Origin: a bacterium
GTDB taxonomy: Bacteria > Patescibacteriota > Saccharimonadia > Saccharimonadales > AWTP1-31
Assembly: GCA_030426125.1 (NCBI GenBank)
Contig: JAUHZB010000002.1
Span: 67,633 to 131,632, forward strand
Reading direction: 5' to 3'
Length of the DNA: 64,000 nucleotides
This document shows positions 2,441-22,172 of the stretch, in pieces (position 1 is the stretch's first letter; the number at the start of each line of letters is the position of its first letter). The notes below the pieces were generated by a model that was given only the letters and a program-made list of their open reading frames with translations, had not been told where the DNA came from and did no database searches. The position numbers and the translations under genes are program-made.

Positions 2441-2610
2441 TAAATGTCCTTATTAGGGTTTTATTGTTTGTCAACTCGACCTGATTGACTCGTTACCGCT
2501 ACGTCTGTAGCGCAAGTCTGAAACAAATGTTTCTACCTAGGTAGCTGATTAAGTAATATTAATTTTTAAAAATTTATATCACGGCTACGGTCTTTGGTAA
2601 CGATGGAGGT
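2441..2610 (-). promoter_or_regulatory. rplJ 5' leader (possible L10/L12 autoregulatory leader)
   Basis: About 165-nt untranslated leader between the promoter and rplJ. It contains a CGCTAC-agac-GTAGCG hairpin (2497-2512). Assignment is by position only. Confidence 0.3.
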
Positions 2611-2639
2611 ATTTTACCTCTGTTGGGGTGGTTTGTCAA
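2611..2639 (-). promoter_or_regulatory. promoter of rplJ-rplL
   Basis: Minus strand TTGACA (2634-2639), 17 nt, TAAAAT (2611-2616). Confidence 0.6.
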
Positions 2640-2670
2640 TATACTCAGTTGTAATTATTTATGGATTGTT

Positions 2671-4194
2671 TTACAAGAATAATTCTATACTCTCTGAATC
2701 GACTTTGTGGTACTCATAATTAGTAGCTTTTAAAGATTCTTTTAATTCTGACCAGTCATTTCCCCTAAAGCCAATTAGTACCCGGCCTTTATCGGCACCT
2801 AGTCCGCGGTAATGGAACAAGCTGATGCTCCATTTCTGACTAATGGTGTCTAGGAACTTTAGCAACGCCCCTGGTTTCTCTGGAAAATTGACTTCCAGTA
2901 TCATCTCTTGATTTTTATCTTTACTTGGGCCACCAACCATATGTCTGATATGCTCTTTGGCAATTTCATCCAGGGTTAGATCATAGTAATTGTATCGATG
3001 CTTTGTTAGGTTAGCGATTAATTGGTTCTTGTCTTCTGCTTGATTTAAGTTAATCCCGATTAGTATAACTGCTTTGTCCTTGGTTGACTGGCTGGCTTTA
3101 TAGCGGTAGCTAAATTCACTAATTGAAAAACCATTAATTACGTCAAGACAAAGTTTTCTCAGGCTCCCGGCTTTTTCTGGTAGCTCAATAGCAAACAAAG
3201 CTTCTTTGCCGCTACCTATAAGTGTTCGCTCGGCTATGAACTGGAGCCTTTCAAAAGTCATGTTGGCTCCAGATAAAATACAGGCCACTTGCTTATTCTT
3301 CTCGGATTTAAGTTCAGAAAAGTATTTTGTGGCCCCAGCTACTGACAGAGCTCCAGCCGGCTCCACAATTGCTCGACTGTCTTCAAAGATTGCTTTAATG
3401 GCGGCACAGACTTGATCTACACTGACCGTGATTATTTCATCTACATATTGTTTGGCTAGTTGGTAAGTTAAGTCCCCAACTTGCTTAACTGCTACACCGT
3501 CAGCAAAAATACCGACATGGTCTAGCTGTAGTCTTTTATTTGTCGCAAGTGACTGTTGCATGGCATTACTGTCAGCCGGCTCAACGCCTATTACTTTTAT
3601 ATCTGGTCTCTTCTTTTTAACGTATTCTGCGACTCCAGCGATTAGTCCTCCGCCACCAACGGGGACGAAAATATAGTCAAGATCTGGGTGTTGCTCTAAG
3701 AGTTCTTTGGCTACCGTGGCTTGTCCATCAATAACCATACGGTCATCAAAGGGATGAATAAAAGTCATAGGACTGGCTTTCATTAGTTCTTGGCATTTTG
3801 CGTAGGCCTCGGAATAGTTATCGCCACTTAAGACTACTTTAGCCCCGTAGCTTTTTACAGCTTCAACTTTAATACTCGGCGTTGTTTCAGGCATCACTAT
3901 TACTGCTGGAATATCTAATTCCTTGGCACTTAAGGCCACGCCCTGAGCATGGTTGCCAGCACTGGCTGCAATTACTCCGGCCTTTTTCTGCTGATCACCC
4001 AGCGAAGCTATTTTGTTGTAGGCTCCTCTAATCTTGAAAGAGTGTATAGGCTGTAAGTCTTCACGCTTGAAATTTATTGATTGGCCAAGCTGCAAGCTTA
4101 GTTTGTTGACTTTTTGTAAGGGTGTTCTACTAACTAAATCATAAAAGCTCGGGTGAACTTTTAGAGCCGATTGTTGGGTCGATTGTTTTTTCAT
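2671..4194 (-). CDS. ilvA: threonine ammonia-lyase (threonine dehydratase), biosynthetic type with two C-terminal regulatory repeats
   Basis: 507 aa. PLP-lysine motif SFKIRGAYN, glycine loop VPVGGGGLIAG, and a long C-terminal region of two ACT-like repeats as in biosynthetic IlvA. Confidence 0.9.
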   Translation of the reverse strand: MKKQSTQQSALKVHPSFYDLVSRTPLQKVNKLSLQLGQSINFKREDLQPIHSFKIRGAYNKIASLGDQQKKAGVIAASAGNHAQGVALSAKELDIPAVIVMPETTPSIKVEAVKSYGAKVVLSGDNYSEAYAKCQELMKASPMTFIHPFDDRMVIDGQATVAKELLEQHPDLDYIFVPVGGGGLIAGVAEYVKKKRPDIKVIGVEPADSNAMQQSLATNKRLQLDHVGIFADGVAVKQVGDLTYQLAKQYVDEIITVSVDQVCAAIKAIFEDSRAIVEPAGALSVAGATKYFSELKSEKNKQVACILSGANMTFERLQFIAERTLIGSGKEALFAIELPEKAGSLRKLCLDVINGFSISEFSYRYKASQSTKDKAVILIGINLNQAEDKNQLIANLTKHRYNYYDLTLDEIAKEHIRHMVGGPSKDKNQEMILEVNFPEKPGALLKFLDTISQKWSISLFHYRGLGADKGRVLIGFRGNDWSELKESLKATNYEYHKVDSESIELFL

Positions 4195-4553
4195 AGTTTC
4201 TCAGCCACTGCCTCAATTTCCACCAATAGTTTATTATCTGCAACTCTAGGAAGTTCCTTAACACCAACGGTACTACGAGCTGGTCTACTTCCACTAGCCT
4301 CAAAAACTTCGGCGTAGACTTTATTCATAGCTTCAAAATCTTCAATATTGACTAAATAGACGGTTACTTTAATTACCTTAGATAAATCTGAGCCAGCTTG
4401 TTTAAGAACATCAGTTAGGTTTTGCAGGGCAAGTGTTGTTTGCTCGGTTATATTTTCTGGTGCTTTGCCTTCCTTAGCTCCAACTTGGCCAGCACTAAAT
4501 ACTAGATTTTTGCTATCTTGGTAACTTGCGTATGGTCCGTAAGTTTTTGGCAT
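4191..4553 (-). CDS. ridA: RidA/YjgF-family reactive enamine/imine deaminase
   Basis: ORF track gives 4191..4646. Start moved to ATG 4551-4553 (MPKTYGPY...) because GAAAGGAG lies 4 nt upstream and the longer version runs through a terminator hairpin. YjgF-family C-terminus (RPARSTVGV..LP...VEIEAVA). Its TGA stop overlaps the ilvA ATG (ATGA). Confidence 0.85.
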   Translation of the reverse strand: MPKTYGPYASYQDSKNLVFSAGQVGAKEGKAPENITEQTTLALQNLTDVLKQAGSDLSKVIKVTVYLVNIEDFEAMNKVYAEVFEASGSRPARSTVGVKELPRVADNKLLVEIEAVAEKL

Positions 4554-4603
4554 AGTTCTCCTTTCAATATTTGGTTTATTCTTGCTAGCTAAACTAGCTA
4601 AAC

Positions 4604-4632
4604 AAAAAAGACCTCTGCTTGGTAGAGAGGTC
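4604..4632 (-). terminator. attenuator terminator in the ridA-ilvA leader
   Basis: Minus strand GACCTCT-ctaccaagc-AGAGGTC followed by TTTTTT, about 50 nt upstream of the ridA Shine-Dalgarno site. Confidence 0.7.
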
Positions 4633-4656
4633 GTTTTATAAGACAATTAGCGACAT

Positions 4657-4707
4657 CTACCGCGTAAGCGGGTCAATAATGTCAATAATTGCTACTATTT
4701 TGTTCAT
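4657..4707 (-). CDS. putative attenuator leader peptide, Ile-rich (16 aa, MNKIVAIIDIIDPLTR)
   Basis: ATG 4705-4707 to TAG 4657-4659. 5 Ile and 1 Val in 16 codons (ATT ATT GAC ATT ATT GAC). No Shine-Dalgarno site; the ATG is 8 nt after a -10 box. The stop codon lies inside the antiterminator segment. Confidence 0.6.
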   Translation of the reverse strand: MNKIVAIIDIIDPLTR

Positions 4708-4715
4708 ACCTTAAG

Positions 4716-4743
4716 ATATTACTCTTTGTTCTGGCTCTGTCAA
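4716..4743 (-). promoter_or_regulatory. promoter driving the Ile leader peptide and ridA-ilvA
   Basis: Minus strand TTGACA (4738-4743), 16 nt, TAATAT (4716-4721), then 8 nt to the leader ATG. Confidence 0.6.
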
Positions 4744-5012
4744 GACAGTCGCCGTTGCTCAATGGTAAGTGGCTGAATATCTTGGTTGTAGTCGTCAGTT
4801 TTAAAAGGATGACCATCACGCCCACTGGCTAGGTGTTCACCAATTATTCTTAGTTCTGGTATTGTGCTGGCCAGATAATTTGAAATTTCCGGACAAACTA
4901 TTCGACCTGGATTAGATTCAGTTTGTATTGGTCTTTCCGGTACTTCGTCTAATCCAAAAGGATCGACTTCGCTAGTTCTCCAACCTAACCAACCATCAGG
5001 ATTTGCTTTCAT
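4740..5012 (-). CDS. hypothetical small protein (90 aa)
   Basis: ORF track gives 4740..5039. ATG 5010-5012 (MKANPDGWLGW...) is preferred because AAGGAG lies 9 nt upstream. No family recognised. TGA stop. Confidence 0.5.
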   Translation of the reverse strand: MKANPDGWLGWRTSEVDPFGLDEVPERPIQTESNPGRIVCPEISNYLASTIPELRIIGEHLASGRDGHPFKTDDYNQDIQPLTIEQRRLS

Positions 5013-5061
5013 CTTTCTTTGCTCCTTTATTCTTATCAATTATTATCTTATCTGAATTATT

Positions 5062-5355
5062 CTAGATGCCTTGGCTTAATGGATCTATAGTTCTAGTACT
5101 TTGGATATCACTACTCTGTGTTTGCTGTAATGCTTCATCGATTGGCGTAGCAGTCATTGAGTAGCCAACTTCACTATCATGAATTAACTCTAATACAACA
5201 GTTGGTCCAACAATTATCCCTTTATTAGCTAATGTTTGATATACCTCAGTAATAACCTCACCGCTATAATCTTGTCCATTAAAATAGACATCTTCAGCTA
5301 TCTCTTCGAAGATTATTGGGTATTTTCGTTCTAATTGTTCAATGTCTTGGCTCAT
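5062..5355 (-). CDS. hypothetical small acidic protein (97 aa)
   Basis: ORF track ORF. AAAGGAA Shine-Dalgarno site about 7 nt upstream of the ATG. First gene after the Leu/Ile/Val attenuator. No family recognised. Confidence 0.55.
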   Translation of the reverse strand: MSQDIEQLERKYPIIFEEIAEDVYFNGQDYSGEVITEVYQTLANKGIIVGPTVVLELIHDSEVGYSMTATPIDEALQQTQSSDIQSTRTIDPLSQGI

Positions 5356-5373
5356 TAAATATTCCTTTAAGTT

Positions 5374-5398
5374 AAAATTCAGGCTATTGAAGCCTGAA
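5374..5398 (-). terminator. attenuator terminator upstream of the 97-aa gene
   Basis: Minus strand TTCAGGCT-tcaat-AGCCTGAA followed by TTTT. Its left arm plus loop (TCAGGCTTCAAT) is perfectly complementary to 5429-5440. Confidence 0.65.
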
Positions 5399-5428
5399 CT
5401 ATGTGGGCTGTGTTGGCGTTAGTAACGC

Positions 5429-5542
5429 TCAGGCTTCAATATATTTTGGACACAGCCCTTTAAGATTAAGAATATCTAAAACCAGCAGCAGATTATTGCT
5501 TCCGTACGCGACGATCCGATTAGCTGTTGCTGTGTTATGCAT
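5429..5542 (-). CDS. putative attenuator leader peptide, Leu/Ile/Val-rich (37 aa)
   Basis: ATG 5540-5542 to TGA 5429-5431: MHNTATANRIVAYGSNNLLLVLDILNLKGLCPKYIEA. 7 Leu, 3 Ile, 2 Val. No Shine-Dalgarno site; the ATG is 7 nt after an extended -10. The last four codons (ATT GAA GCC TGA) form the antiterminator segment. Confidence 0.55.
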   Translation of the reverse strand: MHNTATANRIVAYGSNNLLLVLDILNLKGLCPKYIEA

Positions 5543-5549
5543 CAGTACT

Positions 5550-5578
5550 GTTATAGCACGACGTTTAATCGACCGCAA
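5550..5578 (-). promoter_or_regulatory. promoter of the Leu/Ile/Val leader transcription unit
   Basis: Minus strand TTGCGG (5573-5578), 17 nt, TGcTATAAC (5550-5558), then 7 nt to the leader ATG. Confidence 0.55.
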
Positions 5579-5601
5579 TAGCTAATAGAAAGCCTACTTC
5601 G

Positions 5602-7929
5602 CTAATTTATTTGCTGAAGTTTGAACTGGGTATATTTTTCAGCTGCAAGTCTGGTTAGTTCGGCGTCTTCGGAGGTGTTAACAAAACGCATCGCTTCAGC
5701 CAGCATTGGGTGTTGCTCGGCCAGCTTTTGATGCATCTGCATTACGAGTTTACGGTATCCGGGGTGGCCTTGAGGGCTAGTTCTTAGTTCATGCAGATGG
5801 AATGCTTCACGGGCATTGTAGGTTATCTTCCAGCGCATTTTATGCCCAAGTAAAGTAGCGTACTGTGCTTCGATCTCGTATCCAGCACTTATTAACTGGC
5901 TATGCAGGTTGAGGCTTAGGTCGAAGCAATCTTGGAATAGTTCTTCTAGTCCAGCTTCCTCTACTAGTTCTGGAACTTCATAACCATAGCGAGGGGTCAA
6001 TGCTTGCCACTCTAGATCATCAACCATTCTGTGTCGTTGTAGGTCTCTAAATATTCCGTAGTCGCACATTAGATCCCAGCTATAGTGAGCTTTTTCTAAA
6101 GCTCGACCCGGTTTGTGACGACGATTTAATCTTTCACCCATGTATTTATTAAATACTTCAGTTTTTTGCTTATAGCTCCATTTACTTACTTCCTGCTCTA
6201 TTTCAGCTAATGAAAGATGGCTGTGTTCATAGAGCATGTCCGGTAGTAGGTCTAGCTCGTTCTTTGGCCAGCAATCACTTAAGACCACTGCTTCATCCTG
6301 TTGACCATAATTTGGAGGTAGGTATTTATCGGCAACCTCTTGCATAGCCGAGTGGGTGTTGGCTCGGTAAGCAATTATGGCTCCGCCACGATCTGGTCGG
6401 TCGGCTCGCTCTAGGAAGGTTGGAATAATCTTCCGGGCTTCTTGCAGTAGTCGGTCTCCAGTCTGGACTGCTTCTGGTAGCTTATCGCTTTGCAGGTGCA
6501 TAATTAAACTTTCTAGAGCTTGACCTGAGGCGTAGATACCAACTGTAGCTTTAGTGGCTACCGGCAACACTGGCCTGATAGCATCACAGGCTTGGGCTCT
6601 AGTGGCACCTTTCCAAGCGATATCTTGCTCTTCTTTTGGGGTGCTAGAGTTACTTCGTACATAGTCGGTTAATTTTCTAACCATTTCAGAGTATTTGTCG
6701 AAAATGGTGTCCATTGTTTTAACGTAGCTTTGCTTAATGTCTTCGCTGAAGTGATCCGGCACTAGGTATTTATATTTGCCATCTTTATCTTTCTGATCAA
6801 AGTAGATATAGCGAGTCGATTGTTCTAGGTAAGCTGCTAATCTTCCCCACTCTAGTTTCTTGGTTAGTAGGTTAGATGCATTTTCAACTACCAGGTGGAT
6901 ACCAACTAATTGTTGAACGGAATCATCGCCGTAAGCAGTAATTACTCTTTGCAGTAGCTTTTCATCCTTAGAGGTTTTTCCGGCGAATTCATCAAGCAGG
7001 GTTATACGCATATCGTCACCACGACGACTTAGTCTAGCCATGGCGGCGGCTATCATGGTGGTGCTTAGATTGTCAGTGAAAGCATAGACATTGTCTTGAT
7101 TATTGGTCACAGATTTGTTTAAGAATTGCTCACCGGCAGTGGTAATAGTGTATTCACCAGTGCTGGCTTTTAGTAGTAACGGTCCTTGGTTATCTTCTGC
7201 TATTTTCGACTTTTCTTTAGTTGGTAGTATTGGCAAAACAGTCTCCCATAGTAAGTTATTAATTGTTTCAATATCTAATAATTCTCCGCCTCGTACGCAA
7301 TCGATTTGCTGGAAGTCTTCGGGGAACATGCTACATAGATCATCATATACCTGTACAGACTTAGTTAGGTGGTTAAGATCAGCTTCGTGGATGTCACGTT
7401 TTTTATCGGTGTAATCACGTTTTTCTTTTTGATCAACCAGCTTTTGGGCTGTTTCAGCCGGTACTCGAAGCACAATATTGCGATCTGGCCTAGGGATCTT
7501 TAGCATTTCAAACTCAAGGTTATCTAGCCAAATAAAGTAGCCTTTTCTTTCCTGCTGGTTATTGAACTTAGTTCCTTGATGAGCCATGTTACTGCCAGTA
7601 AAGCGATTGGCCAAAACAATATGGCCTTTATCCAGTGCGGCTCGTATTTCGGGCGCTGCTTGGTAGCGATCTAAGGCATAGAACAAAGAGCCGGTGTAGG
7701 GTCCGACCTCTTCAGCGGTGCCGTATTTAGCATTTAAATACTCCCGGACAAAGAAACTAGATTCGTTTTGGTACTGTGGGAAGTCAAAAACAGACACTGG
7801 AAAGCCATTATCCTCCAAGCGTTTTTTTAGCAGTTTAAACTGAGTGCCCTTTCCGGAACCATCAGTTCCTTCAATAACTATGAACACTCCGTTGTCTTTG
7901 TTGTCGTTGGTTTGACTATTTTGCTTCAT
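5602..7929 (-). CDS. fusion protein: dTMP kinase (N-terminal) + tandem-repeat flavin-dependent thymidylate synthase ThyX-like (C-terminal)
   Basis: 775 aa. Residues about 1-230 look like thymidylate kinase (P-loop FIVIEGTDGSGKGTQ). The rest holds two ThyX-like halves (..ARLSRRG...EQSTRY.. and ..FRDLQRHRMV...LTPRYGY..), matching ThyX RHR and S-x-RY type motifs. Confidence 0.75.
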   Translation of the reverse strand: MKQNSQTNDNKDNGVFIVIEGTDGSGKGTQFKLLKKRLEDNGFPVSVFDFPQYQNESSFFVREYLNAKYGTAEEVGPYTGSLFYALDRYQAAPEIRAALDKGHIVLANRFTGSNMAHQGTKFNNQQERKGYFIWLDNLEFEMLKIPRPDRNIVLRVPAETAQKLVDQKEKRDYTDKKRDIHEADLNHLTKSVQVYDDLCSMFPEDFQQIDCVRGGELLDIETINNLLWETVLPILPTKEKSKIAEDNQGPLLLKASTGEYTITTAGEQFLNKSVTNNQDNVYAFTDNLSTTMIAAAMARLSRRGDDMRITLLDEFAGKTSKDEKLLQRVITAYGDDSVQQLVGIHLVVENASNLLTKKLEWGRLAAYLEQSTRYIYFDQKDKDGKYKYLVPDHFSEDIKQSYVKTMDTIFDKYSEMVRKLTDYVRSNSSTPKEEQDIAWKGATRAQACDAIRPVLPVATKATVGIYASGQALESLIMHLQSDKLPEAVQTGDRLLQEARKIIPTFLERADRPDRGGAIIAYRANTHSAMQEVADKYLPPNYGQQDEAVVLSDCWPKNELDLLPDMLYEHSHLSLAEIEQEVSKWSYKQKTEVFNKYMGERLNRRHKPGRALEKAHYSWDLMCDYGIFRDLQRHRMVDDLEWQALTPRYGYEVPELVEEAGLEELFQDCFDLSLNLHSQLISAGYEIEAQYATLLGHKMRWKITYNAREAFHLHELRTSPQGHPGYRKLVMQMHQKLAEQHPMLAEAMRFVNTSEDAELTRLAAEKYTQFKLQQIN

Positions 7930-7970: not shown

Positions 7971-8684
7971 TTAATCACCTCGGAGTCCTTTAATTTTTGT
8001 TGGTTTGGAGCGTTTGTCTAGGTAGGCTTTAGGTAGCATTAATTCCGGCTTCCAGTTCTTTATAAGGTCTTTTAGTTCTGTACCGGATTGGTATTTTCCG
8101 CTAAATCCGCTGTCTCTTCCCTGACCATAGCTACCTTCAACTTCGCCTGTTTCATAAAAAACAGCTTGAGCGATTCGCTCACCAACTGGTAACAGCACTG
8201 TTTTGTGTTGGTTTAGGTTGAAGACTTCCAGGGTAAGTCGGTTAATATAGCCAGGGTCTATCCAGCCAGCGTCAAAGCAAACTGCGATTCCATTTCTTCC
8301 CCAACTGGAGCGTGATTTAATTTCGCAGGCTCCGGGAGGCAGAATGCCAAAGAACTCATGAGTATGAGCTAGTATTCTTTCTCCAGGACGCAAAGGAATG
8401 ACCGGATGGTCACCAGGTATCCCTTTGAGAAGTTTATGGCCATTGTTGTCGCACCACTCTTTGTGGGTGACGGCCTTGTGCGGTCCATCGAAGTATTTGT
8501 TGACCGATGCTTCATCAAAAGGGTTGTAGATGGTGTTTTCTCCCACCCTATCAGTACGGTAGTAATAGTAGCCAAGAGTGACGTCCAGGCTGGCCTGACT
8601 TACTTGTTTAGCATTAAATGGTTCACAGATAATATGGCCATCTTTTAAGGCCTGACGAATCTGGATATTGCTGTATACTCCCAA
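7971..8684 (-). CDS. dcd: dCTP deaminase family protein (possibly bifunctional dCTP deaminase/dUTPase)
   Basis: ORF track gives 7971..8714. I prefer TTG 8682-8684 because GGAGGGAG lies 6 nt upstream. Family motifs: IICEPF..., ASLDVTLG, AGWIDPGYINRLTLEVFN. Confidence 0.75.
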   Translation of the reverse strand: MGVYSNIQIRQALKDGHIICEPFNAKQVSQASLDVTLGYYYYRTDRVGENTIYNPFDEASVNKYFDGPHKAVTHKEWCDNNGHKLLKGIPGDHPVIPLRPGERILAHTHEFFGILPPGACEIKSRSSWGRNGIAVCFDAGWIDPGYINRLTLEVFNLNQHKTVLLPVGERIAQAVFYETGEVEGSYGQGRDSGFSGKYQSGTELKDLIKNWKPELMLPKAYLDKRSKPTKIKGLRGD

Positions 8685-8799
8685 AACTGACTCCCTCCGT
8701 AATCTTCCATACATTGTACGAAGTTTTAGCGTTTAGGACAAACAAAATGGCTAATATTACATCACATTTTATGCCTAAAGAATCAGTGTAGTGATCTGC

Positions 8800-9741
8800 T
8801 TAGTTTAAGTCAGAAAGTACGACTTTTACGCTAGGTCCCATAGAGCTGCTTAAGTACATAGACTTAAAATAGTTGCCCTTGATGCCAGTAGGCTTACTGG
8901 TCTTAATGCTTGAGAGAACGGTGTCAATATTTTGTTTTAGCTTGTCATCTTCAAAGCTAACTTTTCCAACTCCGAGGTGCACTATTCCGGTGCTATCCAC
9001 TCTAAACTCAACTTTACCAGCCTTAGATTCCTTGATTGCTTTAGCTACGTTGGCAGTAACCGTACCGCTTTTTGGGTTTGGCATTAGACCGCGTGGTCCA
9101 AGAACTCGAGCGTGCTTACCTAGTTTGGCCATTAGCATTGGAGTGGCAACTAGAACGTCAAAATCTAGGTTGCCTTTAGCGATCTTATTCTCAATTTCTT
9201 CAGTTCCAACTATGTCAGCTCCAGCTTTTTTGGCTTTCTCGACATCGTCACCGTCAACGTAAGCTGCAATAGTTAGAGTTTTTCCAGTACCAGCTGGAAG
9301 CGTTACGTTACCGCGAATGTTCTGATCTGCTTGGCGCGGATCGACGTTAAGGCGGACGTGTAGTTCGACAGTAGCATCGAATTTAGCAGGATTGGTTTTC
9401 TTAGTTAGGGCTATAGCTTCCACTAAGCTGTATTCTTTACTAGAATCAATATTTTCAGCAGATTTGCGGTATTTTTTGCCACGTCGTTCTAATAGACTTC
9501 GAGTCTTTGGCGCTGGTTTGGCCTTCTTGGCGGCTTCATCTTTGTCAGCTTCTTTGCTTTGAGCTTTACGCTCTTCTTTAGCTTCTTTTTCGGCTTGTTC
9601 TTTTAGGGCCTTAGCGCTACGCTTTCCGGCTTTAGCAGTTGCTTCTTTAGCGACTTCAGGTTTATCTGTGGAAGCGTCTGAAGATTTTACTGTCGCTTCT
9701 GCTTCGGTATTATCTAATTTAGTTTTCTTATCTTCTGCCAT
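8800..9741 (-). CDS. rplA: 50S ribosomal protein L1 with ~85-aa Lys/Ala/Glu-rich N-terminal extension
   Basis: 313 aa. The L1 core starts near [19 protein letters not shown] Shine-Dalgarno site before ATG 9741 supports the extension. Follows rplK. Confidence 0.9.
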
Positions 9742-21955: not shown

Positions 21956-21994
21956 ATCTTTTCCTGTTATTGTCTCTTCTTATTCTTTTACATT

Positions 21995-22023
21995 AAAAAA
22001 CCGCCCCTTTTTTTTGGACGGTT
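21995..22023 (-). terminator. attenuator terminator in the DAHP-synthase leader
   Basis: Minus strand AACCGTCC-aaaaaaaag-GGGCGGTT followed by TTTT. One stem position is a G-U pair that exists only in the minus-strand RNA. Confidence 0.65.
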
Positions 22024-22045
22024 ACGTTTTCTGAGCAAAAATTAA

Positions 22046-22114
22046 CTATGCTGAATAAACCGTCCAAGATTGTCCGGTAAACCAATAAGCCTTATTAATT
22101 CGTTTTCTCAACAT
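22046..22114 (-). CDS. putative attenuator leader peptide with Tyr-Trp-Phe triplet (22 aa, MLRKRINKAYWFTGQSWTVYSA)
   Basis: ATG 22112-22114 to TAG 22046-22048. 5 of 22 codons are aromatic; codons 10-12 are TAT TGG TTT. No Shine-Dalgarno site. Codons 17-19 form the antiterminator arm. Confidence 0.65.
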   Translation of the reverse strand: MLRKRINKAYWFTGQSWTVYSA

Positions 22115-22124
22115 AACGTTATAG

Positions 22125-22153
22125 ATAATACATTATGTTGCCAAGTATTGCAA
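22125..22153 (-). promoter_or_regulatory. promoter of the aromatic leader peptide and DAHP synthase
   Basis: Minus strand TTGCAA (22148-22153), 17 nt, TATTAT (22125-22130), then 10 nt to the leader ATG. Confidence 0.6.
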
Positions 22154-22172
22154 ATGTCTTGTTAGCTTCTCT

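Follow-up and report, generated by a model that had tools for sequence, protein, structure and literature searches.

What decides whether ridA-ilvA is transcribed when the two genes stand behind a promoter, a very short isoleucine-rich open reading frame (ORF) and a hairpin? We addressed this question on the minus strand of a 64-kb stretch of contig JAUHZB010000002.1 (64,000 nucleotides (nt), as a whole called the window here), in which these elements occupy positions 4604-4743 ahead of ridA. The arrangement is in all likelihood a ribosome-mediated leader-peptide transcription attenuator that is specific for Ile and controls ridA-ilvA in a Saccharibacteria-like bacterium. Judged from the sequence, ridA-ilvA is very probably switched on only under isoleucine scarcity. 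The features of the leader and of the operon are as follows.

4738-4743, minus strand: -35 hexamer TTGACA (sequence inspection and promoter scan)
4716-4721, minus strand: -10 hexamer TAATAT, after a 16-nt spacer and 8 nt ahead of the ATG
4657-4707, minus strand: leader ORF MNKIVAIIDIIDPLTR plus TAG, 16 codons (ATG 4707-4705, TAG 4659-4657)
4675-4689, minus strand: putative regulatory codons Ile7 Ile8 Asp9 Ile10 Ile11, AUU AUU GAC AUU AUU (sequence)
4678-4692, minus strand: region 1, the 5′ strand of helix P1, GCAAUUA-U-UGACAUU, overlapping the Ile codons (minimum free energy folds, pair counts)
4660-4671, minus strand: apical hairpin CCGC-UUAC-GCGG atop P1 (minimum free energy folds; 100% paired in seven sequences; RNAalifold)
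4643-4657, minus strand: region 2, the 3′ strand of P1, GAUGUCG-C-UAAUUGU, beginning in the stop codon (folds, pair counts)
4651-4661, minus strand: antiterminator 5′ strand GGUAGAUGUCG, across the stop codon (masked fold, covariation)
4621-4633, minus strand: antiterminator 3′ strand CGACCUCUCUACC, which is the terminator left arm and loop (masked fold, pair counts)
4604-4632, minus strand: intrinsic terminator GACCUCU-cuaccaagc-AGAGGUC plus U6 (sequence, folds)
4586-4603, minus strand: tandem 9-mer, GTTTAGCTA twice, between the terminator U-tract and the Shine-Dalgarno (SD) sequence of ridA (sequence)
4191-4553, minus strand: ridA, Ribonuc_L-PSP (PF01042), 120 amino acids, ATG at 4553 and SD AAGGAG at 4563-4558 (Pfam)
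2671-4194, minus strand: ilvA, threonine ammonia-lyase, 507 amino acids, with PF00291 and two PF00585 stretches (C-terminal regulatory)

Anatomy and alternative pairings of the leader

Re-reading the sequence reproduced all coordinates of a first-pass annotation, which had proposed an Ile-codon attenuator at this site. The promoter, TTGACA-16-TAATAT, lay where that annotation had placed it and reached 10/12 in a consensus scan; the TGA stop of a 90-amino-acid ORF upstream falls within the TTGACA. The leader peptide MNKIVAIIDIIDPLTR has 5 Ile and 1 Val in 16 codons, and no SD precedes its ATG, as had been noted, the sole purine run being AAGG at 1 nt from the ATG. The ORF appears to be leaderless or to have a 5′ untranslated region of 0-3 nt. 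In all nine elements considered below, the SD is absent and the -10 hexamer lies 6-8 nt from the ATG, which fits a putative leaderless start. Region 1 corresponds to nt 16-30 of the transcript. The terminator was confirmed in sequence; by itself the hairpin has -10.1 kcal/mol, and in ViennaRNA its stem is bulged, has 9 bp and closes on a 4-nt loop. Our minus-strand terminator scan, which allowed loops of 3-8 nt, did not list the hairpin, since its simple 7-bp form has a loop of 9 nt. The ilvA start overlaps the ridA stop. IlvA makes 2-oxobutanoate, the Ile-specific precursor, so that the match between codons and regulated gene drawn earlier holds.

The leader departs from chance expectation in both its codons and its folding. 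The two strands of the window contain 541 ORFs that start with ATG and have 10-30 codons; of these, the leader ORF alone has 4 Ile within any five consecutive codons. At the 6.7% Ile of the window, 5 or more Ile in 15 codons have a binomial probability of 0.002. The 118-nt leader folds at -32.8 kcal/mol, compared with -19.9 ± 3.3 kcal/mol for dinucleotide shuffles (z = -3.9), none of which (0/200) folded as well.

In the minimum free energy fold, the Ile codons pair with the segment that starts in the stop codon, forming P1 as a 1:2 anti-antiterminator that perhaps doubles as a pause hairpin. The antiterminator and terminator of the first-pass annotation both stood, and this pairing of the Ile codons with the stop-codon region was missing from its scheme. 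As modelled, the leader has the complete classical 1:2 / 2:3 / 3:4 topology, in which the 2:3 antiterminator consists of GGUAGA:UCUACC plus GUCG:CGAC and 3:4 is the terminator. The GAC codon between the Ile pairs provides a CGAC that mimics the CGAC of the terminator left arm.

For ribosome-masked folds, we removed the RNA covered by the ribosome (A site +13 nt) and folded the RNA before the terminator right arm; the model assumes equilibrium and a footprint of +12 to +15 nt. The alternative structures formed as had been proposed. When the last Ile codon occupied the A site, the antiterminator formed in nine of nine sequences (-7.3 to -18.7 kcal/mol), and in the window it formed at -10.8 kcal/mol with the ribosome at Ile11. 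With the ribosome at the stop codon, only 0 to -1.6 kcal/mol was left and the terminator left arm was unsequestered, again in all nine. The folds thus predict what the earlier annotation had claimed, namely that a stall at Ile frees the antiterminator and that a ribosome at the stop blocks it. A per-codon scan of eight sequences showed that pairing between the left arm and upstream RNA stays high until 1-3 codons past the last Ile and then collapses.

Pairing was counted on alignment A2, seven sequences that were registered by hand to the proposed helices and padded with N. The antiterminator across the stop codon had 92.7% of its cells paired, versus 27-45% when slid, and its pair score was matched by only 5-6 of 500 shuffles. 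The structure of the terminated state had 90.1% of cells paired versus 28-53% when slid, with double changes at four pairs, and helix 1 had 85.7% paired, with double changes at three. In the antiterminator, two nt around the stop codon exchange with the terminator loop as U-A/C-G and A-U/U-A/U-G.

All the parts by which an attenuator is recognized were found: a cognate-codon-rich ORF, a terminator, an exclusive antiterminator, a 1:2 hairpin within the ORF and, as a prediction, the stall geometry. From the computed anatomy, conservation, mutually exclusive pairings and covariation we infer how the element would operate: where transcription starts, that the ORF is translated, that coupling and pausing occur, and that the leader responds to Ile, with Ile-dependent readthrough. 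Transcription would begin at the AUG of the 16-codon ORF or at most ~3 nt from it, and the leader peptide would be made from a leaderless mRNA. Ile codons 7, 8, 10 and 11 would form region 1 and pair with region 2. When Ile-tRNA is plentiful, the ribosome would reach the stop codon and cover GGUAGAUGUCG, so that regions 3 and 4 form the terminator and the transcript ends ~104 nt from its start. An untranslated leader would hold region 2 in P1, and the terminator would form again. When Ile-tRNA is scarce, the ribosome would stall at the Ile codons and occupy region 1; region 2, now free, would pair with the emerging left arm and loop of the terminator, and RNA polymerase would continue into ridA-ilvA.

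Conservation of the leader among related loci

We compared 12 distinct ilvA loci, the window and 11 related Saccharibacteria-type contigs whose IlvA proteins are ~59-66% identical. The element was present at nine of the 12, namely the window, L004, L009, L011, L012, L016, L017, L018 and L020; the Ile-rich ORF, whose absence from relatives the first-pass annotation had named as a counter-indication, was therefore found in eight of 11 relatives. It stands directly before ridA-ilvA, before ilvA alone, or, in L017 and L018, before an extra ORF behind which ilvA or ridA-ilvA comes, and the synteny dcd / tmk-thyX / ... / ilvA / rplJ / rplL is conserved across the loci.

All nine elements have a TTGACA-type -35 hexamer, a spacer of 16-17 nt and a TAnnAT-like -10 hexamer, which in the relatives lies 6-7 nt before the ATG. 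The TTGACA is identical in eight of them, and L020 has TTGACT. Each has an open frame of 15-18 codons. The peptides of the relatives are MVKQSAIIEIIAPPKR, MSKNIIIEIMIIRNCG, MGKQIIIDIITNRTSG, MFTLVVAAKIISRHCSG, MSQRIMASIMIRFCG, MTRNIILVVITTPRGARF (L017), MTNSIIINIITNRSSG and MTNVTIIDHSTNRFCG (L020). A leader peptide has 2-6 Ile, and together 35 of 137 non-start codons are Ile (~26%, versus 6.7% in the genes of the window). L004, L009, L011 and L018 share an I-I-(D/E/N)-I-I core, surrounded by 3 to 5 Ile, in which AUU, AUC and AUA vary; by hand count, the elements have 24 AUU, 9 AUC and 2 AUA.

From the ATG to the Ile run, every indel is a multiple of 3 in length. In all nine elements the stop codon lies within the antiterminator 5′ strand GCGG-N-U(G/A)A-UG, in one of two registers: UAG in the window and L004, and elsewhere UGA 1 nt later, offset by a 2-nt difference in the linker. 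The GC-rich terminator hairpin followed by U4-6 is likewise conserved in nine of nine, with compensatory changes in L017, and a regular-expression search found one copy of the terminator motif per locus. In L017 the 1:2 helix is CUCGGAAC:GUUCUGAG, the 2:3 helix GGUUCUG:CAGAACG plus GCGG:CCGC, and the 3:4 helix CGGCCCCG:CGGGGUCG, sequences unlike those of the other elements; the same topology and an Ile/Val-rich 18-codon ORF in the same position are retained. Because indels come in multiples of 3, Ile codons change synonymously, the stop occupies two registers and the ORF of L017 is kept, these comparisons indicate that the reading frame, and not the RNA alone, is under selection.

In L020 (~2006-2056) we observed a 1-nt insertion relative to the window, GAU-C-AUU, so that the frame changes past Ile-Ile-Asp and His-Ser is read in place of the second Ile pair (MTNVTIIDHSTNRFCG). 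Helices and stop position are retained; this element may be a weakened or structure-only variant. Two scans for further loci gave candidates that we rejected. An IlvA peptide-pattern scan of genome contigs returned L001-L003, which are non-Saccharibacteria (mostly proteobacterial) ilvA loci with poor patterns, and a scan of metagenome contigs with GCGGNTRATG...GACCTCTC...AGAGGTC returned L013-L015, three GC-rich chance matches.

The tandem GTTTAGCTA GTTTAGCTA is perfect and is followed by GC; its GCTAG...CTAGC is partly palindromic. It is specific to the window and missing in all relatives, and may be the scar of an insertion or a site for a protein. Because of this insertion, the U-tract of the window is 50 nt from ridA, versus 15-33 nt including the SD between U-tract and structural gene in the relatives.

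Evidence against the proposed attenuator and competing explanations

Several findings weigh against an Ile-specific attenuator. Alignment A2 was fitted by hand to the helices, so that its counts favour them, and its seven sequences give modest covariation. When nine leaders were aligned by MAFFT without guidance, RNAalifold returned the apical hairpin and the terminator but nothing else; indels led to the loss of P1, and the hand-registered A2 was used for this reason. The terminator is always more stable than the alternative at equilibrium, and the switch must therefore be kinetic, as in classical attenuators. Because the Ile codons also form a helix strand, they owe their conservation partly to structure. 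Few Ile codons occur in L012 (2), L020 (2) and L016 (3, plus 3 Met).

The element is also missing from three of the 11 relatives, L008, L019 and L021. In L008, ilvA begins 11 nt after a small ORF and has no Ile leader, and in L019 (491-3997) and L021 (131-4036) ilvB-ilvN-(ridA)-ilvA form a single operon without it, which suggests that the Ile leader arose, or persisted, where ilvA is apart from ilvBN. Lastly, no homologues of ilvB, ilvE or leuA/cimA-like (HMGL-type) genes were found in the 64 kb of the window, a stretch too small to judge the remaining Ile pathway of the genome; ilvB, ilvE or HMGL-type genes flank ilvA in some relatives.

Among other explanations, the one that survives best is an untranslated riboswitch-like or protein-binding attenuator, in which a ligand or protein would choose the structure and the ORF would be incidental; we consider it unlikely. 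P1 and the apical CCGC/GCGG are highly conserved in nucleotide sequence, the conservation of AUUAU could be structural given that the Ile codons are a helix strand, no SD precedes the ORF, and L012 and L020 retain the structure with just 2 Ile. The signs of selection on the frame described above speak against an incidental ORF, as do the fixed distance of the ATG from the -10 hexamer and the open frame in nine of nine elements and the Ile/Val-rich ORF that L017 keeps despite its different helix sequences. The same layout occurs twice more in the window, with Leu-rich and Tyr-Trp-Phe ORFs ahead of matching genes.

Rfam, whose families include Leu, Thr, His and Trp leaders and the T-box, had no match to the element either. 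At E <= 10, positions 3500-6000 of the window gave no credible match, the best being a spurious STnc370 (24.7 bits versus a gathering score of 54), and at the gathering level the window and six relatives gave tRNAs and the L10 leader only. A T-box or other riboswitch was rejected because there was no Rfam match and the leader is too short.

A second explanation, which we regard as very improbable, is that the hairpin merely terminates an upstream operon of small ORFs and that the promoter of ridA-ilvA lies downstream of it. The upstream 90-amino-acid ORF ends at 4740, 108 nt before the hairpin, and the gap between U-tract and ridA start is unusually long in the window. The hairpin would also halt upstream read-through, for which the leader AUG would be internal and SD-less, and the terminator may serve both purposes. 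Against a separate promoter, whose existence at 4554-4603 had been named at the outset as one of two conditions that would overturn the attenuator, neither inspection by eye nor the scan found any promoter-like site in that interval (nothing reached 9/12). In eight relatives the gap is so short that there is no room for another promoter, a TTGACA-16/17-TAnnAT promoter immediately before the leader ORF is conserved in nine of nine, and the antiterminator covaries with the terminator loop. A separate ridA promoter downstream of the hairpin is effectively excluded.

Least probable of all is that the small ORF is a functional micropeptide, or works by translational coupling or reinitiation and not by sensing Ile-tRNA: its length and partly its C-terminal residues (…NR.SG / …RFCG) are conserved, but the latter is explained by RNA constraints because these residues overlap the CCGC/GCGG hairpin and the antiterminator strand, the peptides of the window/L004 pair, of L017 and of L012 diverge widely outside the Ile run, and coupling is impossible because the stop codon is at least 100 nt plus a terminator away from the next start.

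Known analogues, further leaders and gene neighbourhood

The Ile-specific attenuator proposed here resembles the enterobacterial leaders of ilvGMEDA (ilvL) and ilvBN (ivbL) in ribosome-stalling attenuation with exclusive 1:2, 2:3 and 3:4 helices. The enterobacterial ilvGMEDA operon includes ilvA. These leaders have an SD, 32 codons and a multivalent Ile/Val/Leu response, whereas the present one is SD-less, has 16 codons and is predicted to be Ile-specific. Of the enterobacterial likeness drawn in the first-pass annotation, the stalling logic stood, and the nearest analogue lies elsewhere. T-box leaders of ilv/ileS in Firmicutes share the sensing of Ile-tRNA charging and the choice between terminator and antiterminator; they bind uncharged tRNA directly, exceed 200 nt and contain the conserved T-box sequence, in contrast to the ~104 nt of this leader.

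Judged by description, the closest analogue appears to be the ilvBNC leader (ilvL upstream ORF) of Corynebacterium glutamicum. PMC11857589, citing Morbach et al. 2000 and Narunsky et al. 2023, describes it as coding for MTIIRLVVVTARRLP, a peptide of 15 residues, without a ribosome binding site and with transcription starting 1 nt ahead of the start codon; its model comprises three hairpins, an anti-antiterminator, an antiterminator and a terminator. Common to both are a 15-codon-class peptide rich in branched-chain residues (MTIIRLVVVTARRLP, compare MTRNIILVVITTPRGARF of L017), the lack of a ribosome binding site, the three-hairpin design and a branched-chain biosynthesis operon downstream. 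The C. glutamicum leader differs in being 292 nt long, Val/Ile/Leu-responsive and placed before ilvBNC, whereas here ~104 nt with nearly pure Ile precede ridA-ilvA. The former belongs to Actinomycetota and the latter to Saccharibacteria/Patescibacteria, and the likeness is one of description. Leaderless short ORFs enriched in one amino acid are also described, in bioRxiv 10.1101/834739, for mycobacteria, where polycysteine ORFs attenuate the downstream operon in response to Cys; here the amino acid is Ile.

Full-text literature searches gave no paper in which attenuation or leaderless leader peptides were connected with the Candidate Phyla Radiation (CPR), Saccharibacteria or Patescibacteria. 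As far as these searches show, the element, once confirmed, would be the first attenuator described from the CPR. It would mean that reduced-genome episymbionts control a committed biosynthetic step by sensing Ile-tRNA charging, and it would argue that ilvA there serves isoleucine supply rather than threonine catabolism. The mechanism itself is already known, so that for attenuation biology at large the result would be a confirmation and not a surprise; its main interest is phylogenetic, being regulated amino-acid biosynthesis, probably with leaderless translation, in a CPR lineage. As a model of near-leaderless attenuation, the element is also compact (~104 nt) and comparatively well resolved. 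Its signature, TTGACA-16/17-TAnnAT-ATG ... GCGGNUGAUGUCG ... CGACCUCUC-loop-GAGAGGUC-U4-6, can be converted to a covariance model for the annotation of Patescibacteria.

Two further candidate leader-peptide attenuators were seen on the minus strand of the window. At 5374-5583, a Leu-type leader has a TTGCGG-17-TATAAC promoter, an ATG at 5542 seven nt on and the peptide MHNTATANRIVAYGSNNLLLVLDILNLKGLCPKYIEA; pairing is possible between GAAGCCUGA, made up of its last codons and stop, and UCAGGCUUC, which forms the left arm of the terminator UUCAGGCUUCAAUAGCCUGAAUUUU. Its fold has z = -3.1, and it had no Rfam match. L004, L008, L009, L011, L016, L017 and L018 all keep the hairpins and a peptide that ends in ...GLCF.(Y/V)(I/V)EA*, and L021 has only the 3′ part of this leader on its contig (…VEA, with no stop after it), ahead of ilvB. 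In the relatives it precedes HMGL-like (leuA/cimA-type) genes or ilvB-ilvN-ridA-ilvA. At 21993-22160, an aromatic leader precedes a class-II DAHP synthase (21955-20771) and TrpRS (20685-19660). It has a TTGCAA-17-TATTAT promoter, an ATG at 22114 ten nt on and the peptide MLRKRINKAYWFTGQSWTVYSA with Tyr-Trp-Phe. The terminator ACCGUCC-A8-GGGGCGGU-U6 has AACCGUCC as its left arm, and this arm is able to pair with GGACGGUU, which lies at the second Trp codon. Its fold has z = -2.6, and it is known here from the window alone.

The usual picture of Saccharibacteria-like CPR bacteria is one of amino-acid auxotrophy and minimal regulation. We lean slightly towards the view that they keep a small regulon of near-leaderless attenuators, of Ile, Leu-type and Tyr-Trp-Phe specificity, with at least three in the window. 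If true, the regulon would comprise undescribed RNA families and would imply coupled transcription-translation, efficient leaderless initiation and the sensing of tRNA charging in the phylum, and regulated synthesis of branched-chain and aromatic amino acids would have been retained in some lineages.

The host is assigned as Saccharibacteria-like from its best named IlvA matches and the common synteny; the best-matching IlvA proteins are annotated as Candidatus Saccharibacteria, Saccharimonadales or Patescibacteria, and the closest is only 66% identical. The window is a ribosomal-protein / EF-Tu / SecY / RpoA region, in which ridA-ilvA is placed between a cluster of dcd and a tmk-thyX fusion and rplJ-rplL. 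The fusion and its surroundings contain the following.

5602-7929, minus strand: thymidylate kinase-ThyX fusion (PF02223 plus PF02511), 775 amino acids (Pfam)
7971-8714: dCTP deaminase-like gene, adjoining the tmk-thyX fusion
5062-5355, minus strand: small ORF of 97 amino acids without a Pfam family
4740-5012, minus strand: small ORF of 90 amino acids without a Pfam family
8800-9741, minus strand: ribosomal protein L1 ORF, 313 amino acids

The tmk-thyX fusion (~766-783 amino acids) is kept in related contigs. The L1 domain covers residues 114-303 only; either the protein is extended at its N terminus or the ORF was called too long. The 97- and 90-amino-acid ORFs sit beneath the Leu-type leader, where relatives have a leuA-like gene; we rejected them as remnants of such a gene, as BLASTP similarity to the HMGL-like proteins of the relatives was nil. 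They are kept only in the nearest relatives, L004 (91 amino acids, 41% identity) and L008 (100 amino acids), whose protein has the common motif LPELRIIGEHLxSGxDGHPF. On the other side of the operon, the ribosomal protein L10 leader RF00557 lies between ilvA and rplJ in L009 (4022-4157), L011, L016, L017 and L018. In the window (2441-2670, minus strand) it was below the gathering score, and the ilvA-rplJ region has a strong promoter-like site there, TTGACA-17-TAAAAT at 2639-2611 on the minus strand.

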